From an uncultured Nitrososphaerota archaeon (GTDB taxonomy: Archaea; Asgardarchaeota; Njordarchaeia; Njordarchaeales; Njordarchaeaceae), in assembly GCA_964518475.1 (NCBI GenBank), contig CAZFGR010000001.1:32001-96000 (forward strand): a stretch of 64,000 nt of DNA. The letters are read 5' to 3'. A program made the translations under genes and the position numbers. Below the pieces are notes generated by a model that saw nothing but the letters and a program-made list of their open reading frames with translations, made no database searches and had not been told where the DNA came from. Positions 14,726 to 44,875 of this stretch are shown piece by piece (within the stretch, counting starts at the first letter, position 1; each line of letters opens with the position of its first letter).

Positions 14726-14938
14726 CTAGAAAATTATCCATGCAGAGATTACAAGCAAGATAAATAACAGAGAGATCGCGGTGACTGCCCTTGGTCCTAC
14801 CTTTATGCCCATTTCTTCCTCTTCATAGAATCTTAAAAGTCCAGCCCCCGTAGGAGGCGTTGTTAATCGCCTCGATTTTCTTCTAGCTCTTTTTTCTTCT
14901 AATTCTTCCTCTTCATACTCCCAATAATCCTCTGACAT
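14726..14938 (-). CDS. secG: Preprotein translocase subunit Sec61beta
   Basis: GAGLLRFYEEE..GIKVGP motif followed by one C-terminal TM helix. Confidence 0.92.
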   Translation of the reverse strand: MSEDYWEYEEEELEEKRARRKSRRLTTPPTGAGLLRFYEEEEMGIKVGPRAVTAISLLFILLVISAWIIF

Positions 14939-14959
14939 ATATCATACACTTCCTCTAAA

Positions 14960-15271
14960 TCATCCAAGCATATCAGCAGAACTTATTTGGAACGAGACAA
15001 TGTTGTATTCACGAAGAATATCCCCAACCTTCTTACCAGCAAAGTATATTGGTTCTCCTCCACCAGTCAATCCTATCCTTCCGCTTTTTATGCCTAATTT
15101 TTCAGCTGCTTCAAGCACTACTCGCTCCATTGAATCATTTATTGTCGTTCTGATCGCTATTGTTTTTCTCAGATTATCCGCCCTCTGGAAATATAGTGTA
15201 ACTATTTCGGGCAATTCTTCGTGTTCCTCAGTTTGCTTAAGCTCAGCGATTTTTTTATCACGCGATTCCAT
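14960..15271 (-). CDS. UFM1-like ubiquitin-fold modifier
   Basis: Beta-grasp-sized core aligns by eye with UFM1: VLEAAEKLGI vs VLKFAAEEFKV, TGGGEPI vs TNDGIGI, KVGDILREY vs TAGNVFLKH; ends DMLG vs mature UFM1 DRVG. Confidence 0.72.
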   Translation of the reverse strand: MESRDKKIAELKQTEEHEELPEIVTLYFQRADNLRKTIAIRTTINDSMERVVLEAAEKLGIKSGRIGLTGGGEPIYFAGKKVGDILREYNIVSFQISSADMLG

Positions 15272-15377: not shown

Positions 15378-15779
15378 CTATTTCAATATCTCGTCGAGAT
15401 GCTTCTTAGCCTTCTTTTTCAATTTTTCATCTTTCATCAGATTAGATTCTCTAATCTCAGCAAATTCGTCCTTAAGAGAATCCATGCTCACTTTGAGATC
15501 ACTAAGAATCTGTGCGAAAGAATCTAGTTTACCAACTAATTTACTAATACTTATGGACAATTTCAAGATATGATCCTCAATTCTCTTCATCATATTAACT
15601 AATTCAGAAGTATTCTCATTAATCGTTGATAAAACCTCATTCCAAGCCTCCACTAATGATTTTAGAGATTCGGCGCTTGGTACTGGTCCCCGGGGCGTCT
15701 CTATAACATCTATAACTATAACCTTTTCCTTCTTCTCTGATTCGCCCTTACTCAATACTCTCACTCCCACAATACTCAC
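15378..15779 (-). CDS. Hypothetical coiled-coil protein between the UBA5-like and UFM1-like genes
   Basis: Short beta segment (VIVIDVIETPRGPVP) followed by a long heptad helix; ORF overlaps the E1 gene end. Confidence 0.7.
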   Translation of the reverse strand: MSIVGVRVLSKGESEKKEKVIVIDVIETPRGPVPSAESLKSLVEAWNEVLSTINENTSELVNMMKRIEDHILKLSISISKLVGKLDSFAQILSDLKVSMDSLKDEFAEIRESNLMKDEKLKKKAKKHLDEILK

Positions 15780-16515
15780 AGTTTCTCCTTCTCTTTACCT
15801 TATCGTCACTTAATACTGTAATACTATTGTTACGCAAGCTAATTATTATCCTAGGAGCCACGTCATTATTATGTAATATCTTTAATCCTTGATCTACCTG
15901 AATAGCCGCTATAATACTTATGGTTGTGGGTAATGAGGCGTCACAAGATCCGGATTCCTCCTCCCCTCCCAGCTCCACCAGAGTTCCCTCTCCAAAATAA
16001 CACCCTAGACAAGGTGTCTTATATGGAATAACCGTTATAACACGCCCCCCTAGACCATCAGTACTTGTTCCTCCATCGATAAGAGGCTTCCGAAGTTTTA
16101 CAATCCAGTAATTAATCTCTAGCCTAGCCTCTACATTATCAAAGCATGTAAAAACAAGATCGCACTTCTTTAAAATCTCTGGAAGCTTCTCCCAACCTAT
16201 AACATCGACATAGTACGTTTCTATATCTGGTGCAAAATTGCCTAGAATCTTCGATATCTTCGCCAGTTTATTAGCTAACGCATTTACTTTCGGTTTACCA
16301 ATATCCTCTACCTCAAAACCTAGTCTATTGAAGTTCTCCGGCCCGACAATATCACGATCCACAAGAATTAGCTTCCCAATACCTAACCTGCCCAGCATCT
16401 CAGCAACCAAAACTCCTAAACCTCCAACTCCTAAAACACATGCGACTTTACTATGCACCAGCTCTGGATCCACTCCCGCCCTTTTTACTCTCTCCAGCAT
16501 GGGGGGTAGAGCCAC
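15748..16515 (-). CDS. UBA5-like E1 activating enzyme (ThiF/MoeB superfamily)
   Basis: GVGGLG, AEMLGRLGIGKL, NFNRL, CFDNVEAR, Zn ligands CLGC and CEYC, and GSCDASLPTT matching the UBA5 catalytic motif GVCAASLPTT. Confidence 0.85.
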   Translation of the reverse strand: MALPPMLERVKRAGVDPELVHSKVACVLGVGGLGVLVAEMLGRLGIGKLILVDRDIVGPENFNRLGFEVEDIGKPKVNALANKLAKISKILGNFAPDIETYYVDVIGWEKLPEILKKCDLVFTCFDNVEARLEINYWIVKLRKPLIDGGTSTDGLGGRVITVIPYKTPCLGCYFGEGTLVELGGEEESGSCDASLPTTISIIAAIQVDQGLKILHNNDVAPRIIISLRNNSITVLSDDKVKRRRNCEYCGSESIE

Positions 16516-38669: not shown

Positions 38670-39686
38670 GTGAATAACATGACTATTGATGAAAATGCAT
38701 TAAGGATAATAGAGGACACAAGCAAGAGAATATCACAGATGATCGTAAGAGGCGCTACAAACATTGCTATCGAAGCTATGAAGAGTCTAGAGAGTTTTAT
38801 TAGGAACGTCCGAGACAACGCGCTGGAACTAAGTTTCTATAAAGCAGTAGAGATATTATTCAAGAGCAGACCGACAGAACCCGCAATGCAAAATGGCATT
38901 ATTTATGTCCTCGCAACATTTGAGAAAGAGAAACAGGAAACAAACTCTATATCTGAGTTAAAAAATGCCCTTATCACAGCGACACGAGAATATATAAGCC
39001 TACTTAAAACAGCTATTAATAAAATAATTGAGATTGGGTGGAGACGCGTTCCAGAAAACGGTATTGTTATGACTCATTGCCACTCATCAACTGTTGTCTC
39101 GATCCTGCAAAAAGCAAAAGATGCTGGTAAGAAATTCATTATTATTAGTTCGGAAACGAGACCCCTTTACCAAGGTCGAAAAACCTCCAAAGAACTAGGG
39201 AGCTATGGAATAAAAGTCTACCATATCGTTGACAGTGCAATGCGATGGGCCGCTAGAAAATTTAAACCTGATATGGCATTGATTGGTGCTGATGCCGTTA
39301 CTAGTACTGGCGTTGTTATAAATAAGATAGGCAGTAAACTTTTAGCACTAGTAGCCGCCGAATTCGATTTTCCCCTTTACGTCGCTACAACACTCCTAAA
39401 ACTCGATCCTAAGACTTTATTGGGTGGTTATACTCCGATAGAAATTAGAGATCCAAGAGAGGTGTGGGAAAACCCTCCCAGAAATATTGAAGTTTTAAAT
39501 CCAGCATTTGAGACAATCGATCCCAGATATATAGACGGAATAATAACTGAAGCGGGAATAATTCCCCCAGAGATCTTTCAGTTAAAATTTGAAAGCACAT
39601 ATCCTAGGATATGGAATATAATCTCCAGTGAACAGGTAAGAAAACTATTTTTTTTTAAAAACTGTTTGGGAGAGAGATTCAAATGA
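38670..39686 (+). CDS. Ribose-1,5-bisphosphate isomerase (eIF-2B alpha/beta/delta family)
   Basis: VRGA, SRPTEP, THCHSSTV, ETRP.YQG, GADAV, NKIG and NPAFE motifs. Confidence 0.88.
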   Translation: MNNMTIDENALRIIEDTSKRISQMIVRGATNIAIEAMKSLESFIRNVRDNALELSFYKAVEILFKSRPTEPAMQNGIIYVLATFEKEKQETNSISELKNALITATREYISLLKTAINKIIEIGWRRVPENGIVMTHCHSSTVVSILQKAKDAGKKFIIISSETRPLYQGRKTSKELGSYGIKVYHIVDSAMRWAARKFKPDMALIGADAVTSTGVVINKIGSKLLALVAAEFDFPLYVATTLLKLDPKTLLGGYTPIEIRDPREVWENPPRNIEVLNPAFETIDPRYIDGIITEAGIIPPEIFQLKFESTYPRIWNIISSEQVRKLFFFKNCLGERFK

Positions 39687-40783
39687 TTCCTCCCGATTTA
39701 AGAGTAAAAATAACAAGAACGGGTGCAGAAATAGAGGCTCCGCTCCCTAAGGAGGAAATTTTGAATATTATCACGTCTCAGACGATCTCACAATTTAGAA
39801 AAAAATTCCGTAGAGCATTAGTTGAGTTCTATGGAAAAAACATCTTAGCGGGTGTTAGATTCATTAAAAATCTATTCGAAAGCTTGACAAGAGCAAAAAT
39901 TCCAGACAGTATTGATGATCTCTACGCAATTATTGAAGAGACTGAAAAAACTCGCCCCGATATATTCATACACATTAATGAAAAAAAGATTACATTCGCC
40001 TCAAAAATCATTAAGACTAGTGAGAAAGAATTAGAAGACTTCTTTACAATAATCTGTACCCTAAAGAGACCCGCTCGAGGAAGCGTATATAAATTCTTTA
40101 TTAGAAAAAACCTCAGACCAATAATTAATTTCTTGGAAAAAAATCAAGAAAAACTCAATGGACTACATGAACTTCTCCTCCATGAATCAATGCTAAGAAT
40201 AGCACAGGAAACACTTAGTAAGAACATACAAGCAGAAATGTTCAGATTTCTCCCAAGAGAACAGTCGGTAATAATCAACATTAGGAAAACTCCATTGAAA
40301 TTAATAGAGATCTTCTCTCCAATAGAAGGAGATCTTCCTCCATATCCTATTATAGAAATCCTTCCCCAAATTAATGAAAAAGTCTCGGAACTTATAATTT
40401 CCTACTCAACAACAAGCGTAATGAATTATGTCACCACCTTTCTAGAAGAATATCTCAAATCCGTTGAGCCGGGAAACATTAGCCTTCATATGCTAGAAAA
40501 ATCGGATAGATTGCTTCTATCAATGATAGATAATGTATCCGTAGCCCATTTCGAAATTCTGCGCCAGGAAAACATACTAAACTCATCGCATACCCTACCT
40601 TCAAAGATTCTTGATGTAGCAATGGCTGTTCTTCGCGAGAAAATTTATACAAAAATAATTATTAGCAAAAACATCCAGTTACAGCTTCACGCATATCCTC
40701 AGACAAAATTCATTACACTAGATGAGAATTGGTCGGAATTTATTAAAGAGGAGATAAAATCGTTAAAAACGAAAATCGGTTGA
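39683..40783 (+). CDS. Hypothetical protein
   Basis: 366-aa ORF that overlaps both neighbours; no recognised motif. Confidence 0.65.
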   Translation: MIPPDLRVKITRTGAEIEAPLPKEEILNIITSQTISQFRKKFRRALVEFYGKNILAGVRFIKNLFESLTRAKIPDSIDDLYAIIEETEKTRPDIFIHINEKKITFASKIIKTSEKELEDFFTIICTLKRPARGSVYKFFIRKNLRPIINFLEKNQEKLNGLHELLLHESMLRIAQETLSKNIQAEMFRFLPREQSVIINIRKTPLKLIEIFSPIEGDLPPYPIIEILPQINEKVSELIISYSTTSVMNYVTTFLEEYLKSVEPGNISLHMLEKSDRLLLSMIDNVSVAHFEILRQENILNSSHTLPSKILDVAMAVLREKIYTKIIISKNIQLQLHAYPQTKFITLDENWSEFIKEEIKSLKTKIG

Positions 40784-41793
40784 TAATCATGAAAAACCCT
40801 AGTAAGTGTTTTCTATGCCCCCATGAGTGTGAGGACGTTAGCGATCTAGTTAATGGTCTTTGTTACATAATAGGCCGAGAGAAAACAAGAGGAATAAACA
40901 CCGTCTCTGCCGAAATTGTAAACGTTGAATCAGCTGGTTTTTTTCATTTTTTTCCCGGACATGAAGCTGTGAAGATTGCTCTCCCCGGATGCAACTTGCG
41001 ATGTCTCTTCTGTGATTACTTGGGTGGAGAGAAAAATTGGATCGTTATCTCAGAACTTGAGAAAAAACTTTCTCTTTTGCTTGAAAAGAGTTCTCCACTG
41101 ATATTATTTCTGGATTGCAGTTTCTCTATACTTCCTCCAGAACCATTGACGAGGATTATAAAATGGAAGAAAGTGTATAGGGGCGATGTCTGGATAATCC
41201 ACGCAACAAACGGTTTTGTTGACGAGAATCACTTTAAGAGCATTATTGAGCATCTGGACGCTCTCCTCGTAAAATTTTTTGGATTCTCGGATGAAGCTTA
41301 CGGGAGGCTCACGATTACGCCACGGGCTTGGAAGTATGCACAAAAAATTGTTGAGAGAGTACTTGAGAGAGGTCCTCTACTTGAACTATCATATACTATT
41401 GTCCCTGGCTTTAATGAAAAAGACTACAAGGAGTTCTTAAACTGGTTATCGTCGCTTAGACAATTTGATATACCACTTCATATTAGACGATTTTATCCAA
41501 AACATTTGTTAAAGAATAAAGCACCTACACGAACCAAGATTCTCATGGACGCTTTTAAGGAAGCCAAAAAGATGGGTTTTAATTACGTCTATATCGACGA
41601 TATATACGAAGGCGTACCCAGAAATACTTATTGTCCTAATGACAGAACCCTCTTAATACGGAGAGTAGGATATTTCGTAGAGAACACAGGAATCATCGAA
41701 TCAAAATGTAAAAAGTGTGGAAAAAGAATTAATGTTTTTGGAAAAATAAAGGAAACGGACATAAGAAGCATATTAAAACTTCCAGGAGAATGA
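40780..41793 (+). CDS. Radical SAM protein (divergent AmmeMemoRadiSam / PFL-activase-like)
   Basis: GCNLRCLFC, FFHFFPG, IVPGFN, PLHI.RFYP and NTYCP...CKKCG motifs. Confidence 0.8.
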   Translation: MIIMKNPSKCFLCPHECEDVSDLVNGLCYIIGREKTRGINTVSAEIVNVESAGFFHFFPGHEAVKIALPGCNLRCLFCDYLGGEKNWIVISELEKKLSLLLEKSSPLILFLDCSFSILPPEPLTRIIKWKKVYRGDVWIIHATNGFVDENHFKSIIEHLDALLVKFFGFSDEAYGRLTITPRAWKYAQKIVERVLERGPLLELSYTIVPGFNEKDYKEFLNWLSSLRQFDIPLHIRRFYPKHLLKNKAPTRTKILMDAFKEAKKMGFNYVYIDDIYEGVPRNTYCPNDRTLLIRRVGYFVENTGIIESKCKKCGKRINVFGKIKETDIRSILKLPGE

Positions 41794-42413
41794 TTCTAAT
41801 GAGTGACAATAGAAATGATAGCACTCTCATCAATATAAAGGAAGCAATTAACGATCACGTTGTTATCAGATTTGATAAACATCTAAGACAAACCATAATT
41901 AAGCTAGAACTACACTTGATGAGATTACCTAATAACTATTTCTTAACAATCTTTAAGCATTGCCTAGATATATGGATTCGCCGCCCTCTCCCTCTGTTTA
42001 ACATAAAGGCAGGTCCAAGTGATAGAAACTGGTCTTTGAGAATAAGAGAGGAAAAGCGGGTCTTTCGGATACTTAAAAAGCATAACCCGTTCAGCAATAT
42101 TATCTCTTACCAATTATTAGAAAATGCTGATTCGAAGGGGAAGAAATGGATCCTCATTTACTTAGATACATTAACTTATCAGCCTAAACACGTCGAAATA
42201 ACGATTCCTAATAATTATCCTCGAACACCCCCGGTAGTACACAGCCATGAGATAAAAAAGTTAGATCAGTGCCTCAACAAAGCGGATGAAAATATAGCGT
42301 CCCTATGGAGGAAAGATGGTAGATACGGTATTCCTCATTTTTTGGCATACTTTTTTTCTCCTTTGCTATATATGACCGCTTCTATTTTAAAAATAAGAAA
42401 AATATTCCAATAA
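41790..42413 (+). CDS. UFC1-like E2 conjugating enzyme
   Basis: LPLFNIKAGPSDRNWSLRIREE, GKKW, IPNNYPRTPP, a Cys in DQCL and LW....YGIPHFLA...P align in order with remembered UFC1 motifs. Confidence 0.75.
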   Translation: MILMSDNRNDSTLINIKEAINDHVVIRFDKHLRQTIIKLELHLMRLPNNYFLTIFKHCLDIWIRRPLPLFNIKAGPSDRNWSLRIREEKRVFRILKKHNPFSNIISYQLLENADSKGKKWILIYLDTLTYQPKHVEITIPNNYPRTPPVVHSHEIKKLDQCLNKADENIASLWRKDGRYGIPHFLAYFFSPLLYMTASILKIRKIFQ

Positions 42414-42578: not shown

Positions 42579-43646
42579 ATGTCCATGAGAACTCTCTTAA
42601 AACTGGGAAAATCAAGCTTGGTAGTTGTTTTGCCAAAAGACTGGCTTAATGAAATGGGACTCAAAAACGGGGATAAAGTACTAGTAAAACAGGAAGACGA
42701 TGGAAGCCTAAAAATAATCCCTGCGAATATTTCTATTAGCGGTTCATCAAATAGCACACGATTGGTTGTTAACGTTGATAAATGCAAGGATATAGGTCTC
42801 GTAACTAGACTCTTAATTGCTAATTATTTAATAGGGAACGATTCTATAATCATACACGCACGACGCGGAGGCATACCTCCAAACGTTTTAAAGGAAGTAA
42901 GAGATATCATCTCTAAGCTCCGCGGTTTCGAAATAATAGAGCAAAAACCCAATAGGCTTCTCTTACAATGCGTTACGGATGCAACGAGCTTTTCTATAGA
43001 TAACCTAATTGGACGAATGCTTTCCCTACTTCTATCAATGATTGATTATTTGAGACGAGGTCTTTCTGAGCAGAAAAGAGATTATTTCCAAGAAGCCATA
43101 TTCATAGAGGAAGAAATCGACAGAATATATTGGTTCGGTGTCCGTCAATTAATAATGGTTCAGAAAAATAGAGCACTAGCCAAACTCGTTGGTCTAGAAT
43201 CCACGCTACACATAGTAGGTAATAGAGCAATACTGAAATCGCTTGAATTGGCTGGAGATTACGTAGAAGAGATGGCCAGAGACCTTTCTAAACTTGATCT
43301 AGAGAAATTATCCCATCTCTCAGGAATAATAGGTAAAATATGCGACTTGATAAATGTAATAGAAGACATTATAAGCGATGCCGTCCGTACATATAATGGC
43401 CTCGATATATTCCTTGCAAACGCTGTACTAGAAAAGATTAGGGAGATCACTGAAACAGCTCACTCACTAAGCGAGGAAATCATGAATAGGTGCAGAGATG
43501 TAAAGACAGGCGTTATTCTGGTCAAGCTACTCACTAGATTATCTGACATGGCTAAAAGCATAGGCACTGTATGTGAAATTATTCTAAATAGAGCAATGGA
43601 AAACCCAAGCAAGGGTCTACAAAACTGCATCTACAGAGAACTATGA
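42579..43646 (+). CDS. AbrB-PhoU phosphate uptake regulator
   Basis: RTLLKLGKSSLVVVLPKDW AbrB domain; EEEIDRIY and LELAGDY PhoU repeats. Confidence 0.9.
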   Translation: MSMRTLLKLGKSSLVVVLPKDWLNEMGLKNGDKVLVKQEDDGSLKIIPANISISGSSNSTRLVVNVDKCKDIGLVTRLLIANYLIGNDSIIIHARRGGIPPNVLKEVRDIISKLRGFEIIEQKPNRLLLQCVTDATSFSIDNLIGRMLSLLLSMIDYLRRGLSEQKRDYFQEAIFIEEEIDRIYWFGVRQLIMVQKNRALAKLVGLESTLHIVGNRAILKSLELAGDYVEEMARDLSKLDLEKLSHLSGIIGKICDLINVIEDIISDAVRTYNGLDIFLANAVLEKIREITETAHSLSEEIMNRCRDVKTGVILVKLLTRLSDMAKSIGTVCEIILNRAMENPSKGLQNCIYREL

Positions 43647-43834: not shown

Positions 43835-44875
43835 ATGCTAAGAAGAAAACTTGTCAAGCTTGGAAAATCCAGTCTCGTAGTCTCACTACCAAAAGAATGG
43901 ATAAATAACCTGAATCTTAACGCTGGAGATGAAGTCTCGATAACTTATTCTGAAGACGGATCCTTGATTATAACGCCAGCAAAATTCGCCATGCGTAAGA
44001 GGATATTGCCTCTTCTAATCGATATTACTAATTGTGATGAACCGCACCTAATTGAACGATTGATCATAGCAGCTTACGTTGTTGGAAAAGATCCTATTAT
44101 TATTAAATCCGAGAGAGGGCTTTCTTCATCTCAGTTACGAGAAATAAGAACAGTGATCAATAATATTAGGGGCTTAGAAATCGTGAAAGAAGACGAGAAA
44201 AACATTGTTCTCAGATCCTTCCTAGATCCTACGAAGTATCCTCTGACGGGACTCATCAAAAGGATAATTAACCTAGTTCAAGCAATGCTTGAGTTCTTAA
44301 TCGAAGCTTTGAGGAGAAAAAATAAGAGCTATTTAGAAGAGCTTTTATATATTGAAGAAGAAGTTGATAGACTTTACTTCTCTACCCTGAGACAGATATT
44401 CTTAGCCGCTAAAATCAGAGAAATAGCCGAATCTATTGGAATAAAACGAAATATAGAGATTATGAGCTTGAAAACAATTATCAAAGTTTTCGAGCTTCTT
44501 GCTGATGATTTAGCAAAAATAGCACGTTCAGCATTAAATCTAATAGAGAGCGGGGAGAATATTCTAGAAACTAATATGCATGAATTCATTAACTTTCTAG
44601 CAGATATCTCATCCCTATTCAACTTCGTTTCTAAAATGATTCTCTACAACAACGCTAGCTTAACCAATGAACTCCTCAACAAACTAGAAGATTTGCTGAA
44701 AGAGTATAGTGCACTGGATACACTATTCGCTACAAAAATAAAAAACGAAAAAGTTCTGAAATGGCTTAAGGAAGCTCTCTGGGGATTAATGATATTTACC
44801 GATATGTTAAGAATAATCGCAGAGATCTCGATTAACATTATAATTGATCGTGCTGAAAATAAATTTGAGTGTTAG
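43835..44875 (+). CDS. AbrB-PhoU phosphate uptake regulator (tandem paralog)
   Basis: RKLVKLGKSSLVVSLPKEW and EEEVDRLY motifs. Confidence 0.9.
   Translation: MLRRKLVKLGKSSLVVSLPKEWINNLNLNAGDEVSITYSEDGSLIITPAKFAMRKRILPLLIDITNCDEPHLIERLIIAAYVVGKDPIIIKSERGLSSSQLREIRTVINNIRGLEIVKEDEKNIVLRSFLDPTKYPLTGLIKRIINLVQAMLEFLIEALRRKNKSYLEELLYIEEEVDRLYFSTLRQIFLAAKIREIAESIGIKRNIEIMSLKTIIKVFELLADDLAKIARSALNLIESGENILETNMHEFINFLADISSLFNFVSKMILYNNASLTNELLNKLEDLLKEYSALDTLFATKIKNEKVLKWLKEALWGLMIFTDMLRIIAEISINIIIDRAENKFEC

Follow-up and report, generated by a model that had tools for sequence, protein, structure and literature searches.

An archaeal UFC1-family E2-like protein with a shortened loop before its conserved cysteine, a probable accessory paralog in a Njordarchaeales genome

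Parts of the UFM1 conjugation pathway have been placed in Asgard archaea, and in this study we focus on a UFC1-like conjugating enzyme (E2) encoded by an uncultured archaeon of the order Njordarchaeales. The window analysed is a stretch of 64,000 nucleotides (G000:C1:32001-96000, from the source genome G000, a 2.33-Mb assembly that is 91% complete), and the open reading frame (ORF) in question, 41790..42413 (+), encodes a 207-aa UFC1-family E2-like protein, here called E2-A (P0001). Our analysis indicates, with a probability that we put at about 0.6, that E2-A is an accessory third (type A) UFC1-family E2 paralog of an archaeon that has two UBA5-like activating enzymes (E1) and two UFM1-like modifiers. 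Cys161 is most likely still the site at which E2-A bears a UFM1-like tag, and the protein probably provides an auxiliary or specialised route of conjugation instead of serving as the core E2. The original prediction for this ORF was that of a UFC1-like E2 completing the cascade of a UBA5/UFM1-like pair about 25 kb away; the first part of it stands, whereas the second is not the best reading.

Family assignment and active-site region of E2-A

The translation of the ORF contains the motifs first read from it, namely PLPLFNIKAGPSDRNWSLRIREE, GKKW, IPNNYPRTPP, DQCL and LWRKDGRYGIPHFLAYFFSPLL; an alternative start at Met4 (nt 41799) is equally plausible and agrees better with the ortholog. The Pfam profile PF08694 (UFC1) matches residues 67-194 of E2-A with 32.4 bits (gathering cut-off 25, E 8.9e-8) and the match spans profile positions 8-142 of 155. 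With the generic E2 profile UQ_con (PF00179) there is no match, the HPN (His-Pro-Asn) motif being absent from E2-A, and the RWD profile gives 16.7 bits, which is under its cut-off. A phmmer comparison of E2-A with all PDB sequences returned 26 rows, every one a UFC1 chain (best E 2e-5; one is a UBA5-UFC1 fusion), and not a single generic E2. The nearest cluster in the ESM Atlas comprises 61 proteins, all archaeal, with PF08694 in 89%, and the closest relative among named records comes from a Candidatus Njordarchaeota metagenome-assembled genome (MAG).

A model of E2-A was computed with AlphaFold2 on a 62-row family alignment (A3). It has a mean predicted local distance difference test score (pLDDT) of 82, mostly above 90 across roughly residues 61-150, and a predicted template modelling score (pTM) of 0.76. 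The top 29 PDB matches found by Foldseek with this model are all UFC1 (probability 1.00), with template modelling scores up to 0.70 (target-normalised), and generic E2s appear from E 0.018. The profile test and the predicted UFC1-type UBC fold therefore agree with the naming of this protein as a UFC1-like E2. At the level of sequence the likeness to UFC1 is not due to chance, and with the predicted structure added we consider both family and fold settled: E2-A belongs to the UFC1 family, and its UBC fold is of the UFC1 type, which can be told apart from that of generic E2s.

The putative thioester-forming residue is Cys161 (codon 42270..42272, +). Its column holds Cys in 62 of 62 rows of A3, including 12 eukaryotic UFC1 rows with KICL, and is the only invariant Cys column; it aligns with human Cys116, a correspondence established at the level of sequence alignment. 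The other invariant columns are R84, E88, Y143 and P144, while P148 is nearly invariant. The ortholog P0002 has one Cys only, equivalent to Cys161. Tyr143 and Pro144 open the YPRTPP motif (Tyr143-Pro148, 42216..42233, +), which is followed by a shortened pre-Cys segment (residues 149-160, 42234..42269, +) in the place of the TAK/HPN loop. The distance from Tyr to Cys is 18 in E2-A and 14-18 in the four members of what we call the A clade (E2-A, P0002, P0022 and P0029, all of which retain the Cys), compared with 26 in 12 of 12 eukaryotic UFC1 rows. Clade B has 27, clade C has 25-34, and the remaining archaeal members have 22-40. The segment of E2-A thus falls 8 residues short of that in eukaryotic UFC1 and 7-16 short of those in its two paralogs, the A clade as a whole being 8-12 residues shorter than eukaryotic UFC1, and the Cys-to-Trp spacing is 12 versus 9. 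Because the Tyr-to-Cys distance is so short, the stretch that bears TAK in eukaryotic UFC1, or HPN in other E2s, must be regarded as deleted in E2-A. None of the archaeal members aligned here has the TAK motif (T106-A107-K108 in human UFC1).

Approximately the first 60 residues (41790..41969, +) form an N-terminal extension without counterpart in eukaryotic UFC1, the Pfam match starting at residue 67, and this extension is conserved in P0002 and P0022. In the model it contains helices, predicted with low confidence, at 16-38, 42-45 and 50-64, with a pLDDT of 45-67 for residues 1-50 and about 83 for residues 51-60. What was first said of the sequence is borne out: the motif order and Cys position match UFC1 at the alignment level, the TAK motif is absent, and there is an extra N-terminal segment of about 60 aa.

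UFM1-type components of the genome and their E2 partners

A phmmer search of all ORFs found three UFC1-like proteins in G000: E2-A, E2-B (C1:24208-24735, that is L002:4208-4735) and E2-C (C1:178887-179438, that is L001:1429-1980, -). E2-A is 21-26% identical to E2-B, E2-C and other archaeal UFC1-like proteins. In total the genome holds two UFM1-like ubiquitin-like modifiers (Ubl), two UBA5-like E1s, one distant ThiF-family protein and one operon-type JAMM protein; when G000 was searched for further modifiers or E1s as possible partners of E2-A, this returned only Ubl-a, Ubl-b, E1-a, E1-b and the distant ThiF-family protein.

The UBA5/UFM1-like pair is present about 25 kb from E2-A, as predicted. 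E1-a (15748..16515, -; Pfam ThiF 136 bits) is a 255-aa UBA5-like activating enzyme and a candidate upstream enzyme for E2-A; its best PDB matches are UBA5 with 96 bits, versus 61 for ThiF and 54 for MoeB, and it has orthologs across the order. Ubl-a (14960..15271, -) is 103 aa long, ends in a single Gly (...SSADMLG) and has a predicted Ufm1-like fold, by which it is assigned as a UFM1-type modifier with a single C-terminal Gly. The Pfam Ufm1 profile found nothing in G000, and searching PDB sequences with a profile built from both modifier types brought up neither UFM1 nor ubiquitin nor any further Ubl, so that the UFM1-likeness of the tags derives entirely from predicted structure.

A 133-aa ORF without family match (15378-15779, -), predicted to form a coiled coil, separates Ubl-a from E1-a and overlaps the stop of the latter; E1-a adjoins Ubl-a in G000 and G002 only. 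G002 has its Ubl-a ortholog joined in frame to Sec61beta (L035:1225-1800, +; 192 aa, ...ISSADMLG-APPMSEE... and a transmembrane helix), whereas in the G000 window the Ubl-a and Sec61beta genes are separate, 21 nt apart (14726-15271, -). Ubl-a orthologs of family f2 have a short tail after the Gly (AEMLGDS, AEMLGAS, AEMLGITGST), and the Ubl-b orthologs are tailed in the 6 of 6 examined. Such tails, together with the Sec61beta fusion, suggest precursor processing and a link between Ubl-a and this translocon subunit.

The operon of E2-B, about 7 kb before the window, is compact and encodes a JAMM-like protein, a 272-aa UBA5-like E1 (E1-b), E2-B and Ubl-b, a 96-aa Ubl (...KDLLG|DDF). The HxH...SxxD motif of its JAMM-like protein, which has no Pfam match, was read by eye; the operon holds this protein instead of a UFSP. 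The start of E2-C is overlapped by the gene of a 127-aa protein (L001:1977-2360, -) with several CxxC pairs and a weak DUF4428/Zn-ribbon match, a candidate adaptor or E3-like partner of E2-C. The Pfam profiles of the ligase (E3) components UFL1 and DDRGK1 and of CDK5RAP3 gave nothing above cut-off in the whole of G000 (91% complete), and the UFSP (peptidase C78) profile gave no match there. The best E-values for the UFL1-DDRGK1(-CDK5RAP3) profiles were 0.08 and 0.005, and control genomes gave equally good values. No UFL1/DDRGK1-type E3 had been recognisable in the window, and the same now applies genome-wide, with CDK5RAP3 and UFSP added.

The assignment of the E2s was addressed by co-occurrence in 13 related genomes carrying the UFC1-like family. 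Ubl-b and E2-B are strictly found together and in the same operon (G000, G002, G003, G004, G006, G008). Ubl-a is found together with E2-C (G000, G002, G004, G005, G006, G007, G010-G013), the exceptions (G001, G003, G008) being assemblies that are 66-76% complete, and in each of the five genomes of family f2 one E1, one a-type Ubl and one UFC1-like E2, which is E2-C, were found. Members of B and C occur widely across the order, whereas E2-A was detected only in G000 and G002, and a locus search with the four-row A-clade alignment gave two loci only. In G001, G004, G005 and G006 the ortholog of the radical SAM gene that precedes E2-A is directly followed by an AbrB-PhoU gene, with no E2 between; since the locus is assembled in these genomes, E2-A is truly missing from it. 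Moreover, 9-11 related genomes have Ubl-a with its E1 and also E2-C, and in these E2-A was not found. From this co-occurrence pattern and the empty E2-A loci it follows that the minimal conserved cascade is E1 + Ubl-a + E2-C, with E2-A as an accessory addition. E2-C is the more likely core E2 for the E1/Ubl-a pair of the window, and the operon paralog E2-B the more likely E2 for Ubl-b.

The short-loop clade and the possible role of E2-A

Two members of the A clade are encoded next to conjugation genes. P0022 is found on a 1.7-kb contig in the order Ubl(...VLG)-E2-JAMM, and the adjoining Ubl shares 41-57% identity with b-type tags (47% with Ubl-b of G000) and 27-31% with a-type tags. P0029 comes from a Candidatus Jordarchaeia MAG (JAHAWU010000072.1, L031:7696-11278, +), in an operon of an a-type Ubl (...PDMLG|N), the short-loop E2 (168 aa), a 473-aa JAMM fusion, a UBA5-like E1 and a long-loop E2 (163 aa). 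A short-loop and a long-loop E2 can thus share one operon. The JAMM-like fusion has a long charged tail, and a HEAT and ubiquitin-domain protein is encoded 3 kb downstream. These two loci place short-loop E2s in bona fide conjugation operons, with no single tag type, and such outgroup operons (tag-E2-JAMM(-E1)) support, by their gene content, a conjugation role for the clade.

The original prediction made E2-A the dedicated E2 of the E1-a/Ubl-a pair, three genes of one cascade. All three are UFM1-pathway-like and located on a single contig, and in the Jordarchaeia operon P0029 is encoded immediately 3' of the a-type Ubl. However, the pair travels with E2-C across relatives, Ubl-a and an E1 being present in those 9-11 genomes without detected E2-A and E2-C being the sole UFC1-like E2 found in f2; P0022 adjoins a b-type Ubl, so the clade is not bound to one modifier type. 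We therefore regard a dedicated E2-A as unlikely.

For an accessory E2-A, one of the two E1s would load Cys161 with a UFM1-like modifier in thioester linkage, and E2-A would then hand the modifier to a lysine. The missing loop could be replaced by a loop-independent oxyanion hole just past the Cys, formed by backbone and helix dipole, or by a partner protein; a loop-independent oxyanion hole has been described for the auto-modification of human UFC1 (PMC12032130). Several observations weigh against this proposal. The TAK of human UFC1 builds an oxyanion hole required for E3-driven trans-UFMylation (PMC12032130) and, by analogy, E2-A may not do normal aminolysis without the TAK loop. Cys161 is placed by the model within a helix (153-172) at moderate confidence, with a pLDDT of about 75. 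Human UBA5 recruits UFC1 through a C-terminal tail that is missing from both E1-a and E1-b; E1-a ends shortly past its last Cys pair, with no UFM1-interacting or UFC1-binding sequence (UIS/UBS) tail. Finally, the absence of E2-A from other genomes partly rests on incomplete assemblies (66-90% complete). A complex prediction for the E1-a dimer with the E2-A core scored 0.01 (mark 0.32), which is not evidence either way.

E2-A could also be a regulatory or non-transferring E2 that holds the thioester, or binds the modifier or another E2, with no lysine transfer of its own, in the way that Ubc13 is helped by UEV proteins. E2-A has lost the entire loop equivalent to TAK/HPN, and the Jordarchaeia operon with its short-loop and long-loop E2s is compatible with a division of labour between two E2s. 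In addition, TAK mutants of human UFC1 lose trans-UFMylation and retain self-modification (PMC12032130). Yet the Cys is strictly kept in four of four A-clade members, whereas typical UEV/RWD variants have lost it, and the P0022 contig, although only 1.7 kb long, shows the short-loop E2 as the sole E2 beside a Ubl and a JAMM gene. A purely regulatory role is in our view improbable.

The radical SAM gene upstream of E2-A (AmmeMemoRadiSam/PflA-like; 40780..41793, +; Pfam Radical_SAM, TIGR04337 98 bits, below cut-off) shares 4 nt at its stop with the E2-A start, and because of this overlap the two genes are probably co-transcribed. The E2-A start overlaps the upstream gene in both G000 and G002, which fits translational coupling, and the E2-A frame is intact in both genomes at 48% protein identity, with all family-invariant residues kept and synonymous sites saturated. 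E2-A stands away from every Ubl, E1 and JAMM gene. That E2-A is left over, without function, from a third operon since lost or transferred, and persists by chance 3' of the radical SAM gene, would agree with this distance, with the narrow distribution of E2-A and with its position between genes that are adjacent in sister genomes, but is very improbable in view of the intact frame, the invariant residues and the start overlap retained in two genomes.

Other neighbours were considered as partners. The radical SAM gene was ruled out as a functional partner of E2-A, since its ortholog in four sister genomes is followed by AbrB-PhoU with no E2. It is the last of three genes before E2-A chained by 4-nt overlaps (38670-39686, 39683-40783 and 40780-41793, +), after a ribose-1,5-bisphosphate isomerase/eIF-2B-family gene and the gene of a fast-evolving 366-aa protein of no family; in sister genomes an amidotransferase-like gene (start MCGIAG) is inserted between the latter and the radical SAM gene. 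The 366-aa protein, for which an ESM Atlas lookup gave no usable look-alike, was ruled out as an E3 or adaptor sharing the narrow range of E2-A, as diverged syntenic homologs are found in G004 and G006, which are without E2-A. Directly 3' of E2-A are tandem AbrB/MazE-like and PhoU-domain paralogs (42579-43646, 355 aa, and 43835-44875, 346 aa, +), the first of which adjoins the radical SAM gene genus-wide.

Relation to eukaryotic UFC1 and comparison with known systems

Searched exhaustively with a family profile, a set of 1.84 billion representative proteins gave 61 matches at E <= 0.001. Besides UFC1s of eukaryotes these include about 30 clusters of archaeal type, one of them labelled Helarchaeota. 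In a scan of the phylum, 46 of 301 sampled genomes from at least 14 families match the UFC1-like family, some with 3-6 copies. G296, G239 and G071, of the same phylum, have 2-6 UFC1-like matches, several on one contig (three within 4 kb on G239:C36), which suggests that this E2 family has expanded locally. In the archaeal metagenome proteins P0025, P0036, P0044, P0033 and P0040 a C-terminal UFC1-like domain is fused to Ras/Roc GTPase, Roadblock/LC7, HEAT or Zn-ribbon domains; no such fusions were seen among the eukaryote-type UFC1 matches of the same set.

A maximum-likelihood tree (LG+C20+F+G4, posterior mean site frequency model, PMSF) unites the A clade with the clade of eukaryotic UFC1 on one branch (support 92/94). 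In a second tree, built from an independent L-INS-i alignment with stricter trimming and without three rows that were long or of odd composition, eukaryotes once more have the A clade as their sister (Shimodaira-Hasegawa-like approximate likelihood ratio test, SH-aLRT, 86). The eukaryotic stem is very long (2.36), and because the approximately unbiased (AU) test does not reject an alternative that unites eukaryotic UFC1 with clade B (p 0.069), this sister relation stays a lead with moderate support. Tentatively, the short-loop clade (Njordarchaeota and Jordarchaeia) might be the closest archaeal sister of eukaryotic UFC1 and its lineage the source of the eukaryotic UFMylation E2, with Asgard UFM1-type systems routinely running 2-3 specialised UFC1-like E2s without a UFL1-type E3, as an E3-independent ancestral UFMylation; we offer this as a possible scenario rather than as our expectation.

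An archaeal UFC1-like E2 family alters the published picture of UFC1 as a eukaryote-only protein. The E1-E2-tag core would predate eukaryotes, and G000 has this core without a UFL1-type ligase having been found. Three diverged UFC1-like E2s can coexist in a single organism. Moreover, a natural clade that has deleted the TAK/HPN-equivalent loop, retains the catalytic Cys and remains in conjugation operons offers a test by nature of the extent to which aminolysis by E2s depends on this loop. If the grouping of the A clade with eukaryotic UFC1 holds, it points to the source lineage of the eukaryotic enzyme.

Picchianti et al. (2023, PMC10183829) observed UFM1, C53, UFC1 and UFSP2 exclusively in eukaryotes, and traced UBA5 to prokaryotes and UFL1/DDRGK1 to Asgard archaea. 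Koestlbacher et al. (2026, PMC12962969) reported Ufm1 homologues in nine Asgard clades, UFC1 not being mentioned; the Ubl-a of the window fits the Ufm1-like fold reported there. The pattern in G000 is the reverse of these accounts, with UFC1-like E2s present and UFL1/DDRGK1 not found. In the full-text literature on UFC1 with Asgard or archaea we found no report of an archaeal UFC1, although automatic annotation already labels such archaeal proteins PF08694.

Compared with eukaryotic UFC1 (human, PDB 2Z6O and 8BZR), E2-A is without TAK, has a pre-Cys segment 8 residues shorter, a Cys-to-Trp segment 3 residues longer and about 50-60 extra N-terminal residues, and human W145 and E149 are not conserved in it. 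E2-B and E2-C are of the same family and have the invariant R, E, YP and Cys in common with E2-A, but their loops are long (27; 25-34). Unlike in eukaryotic UFMylation, the E2 studied here is one of three paralogs, and neither a UFL1/DDRGK1 E3 nor the recruiting tail of UBA5 was found in G000. In Caldiarchaeum subterraneum an operon encodes Ub-E1-E2-RING-Rpn11 (PMC6043591). This system and SAMP-UbaA of Haloferax have in common with G000 a prokaryotic Ubl, an E1, a JAMM/Rpn11-type protease and the processing of tag precursors, as well as, in Caldiarchaeum, an E2. The tags of SAMP/UbaA and Caldiarchaeum are ubiquitin-like or MoaD/ThiS-like with a GG end, and are served by a canonical HPN E2 or by no E2. 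In contrast, the tag in G000 is UFM1-like with a single Gly, its E1 is UBA5-like and its E2 is UFC1-like.
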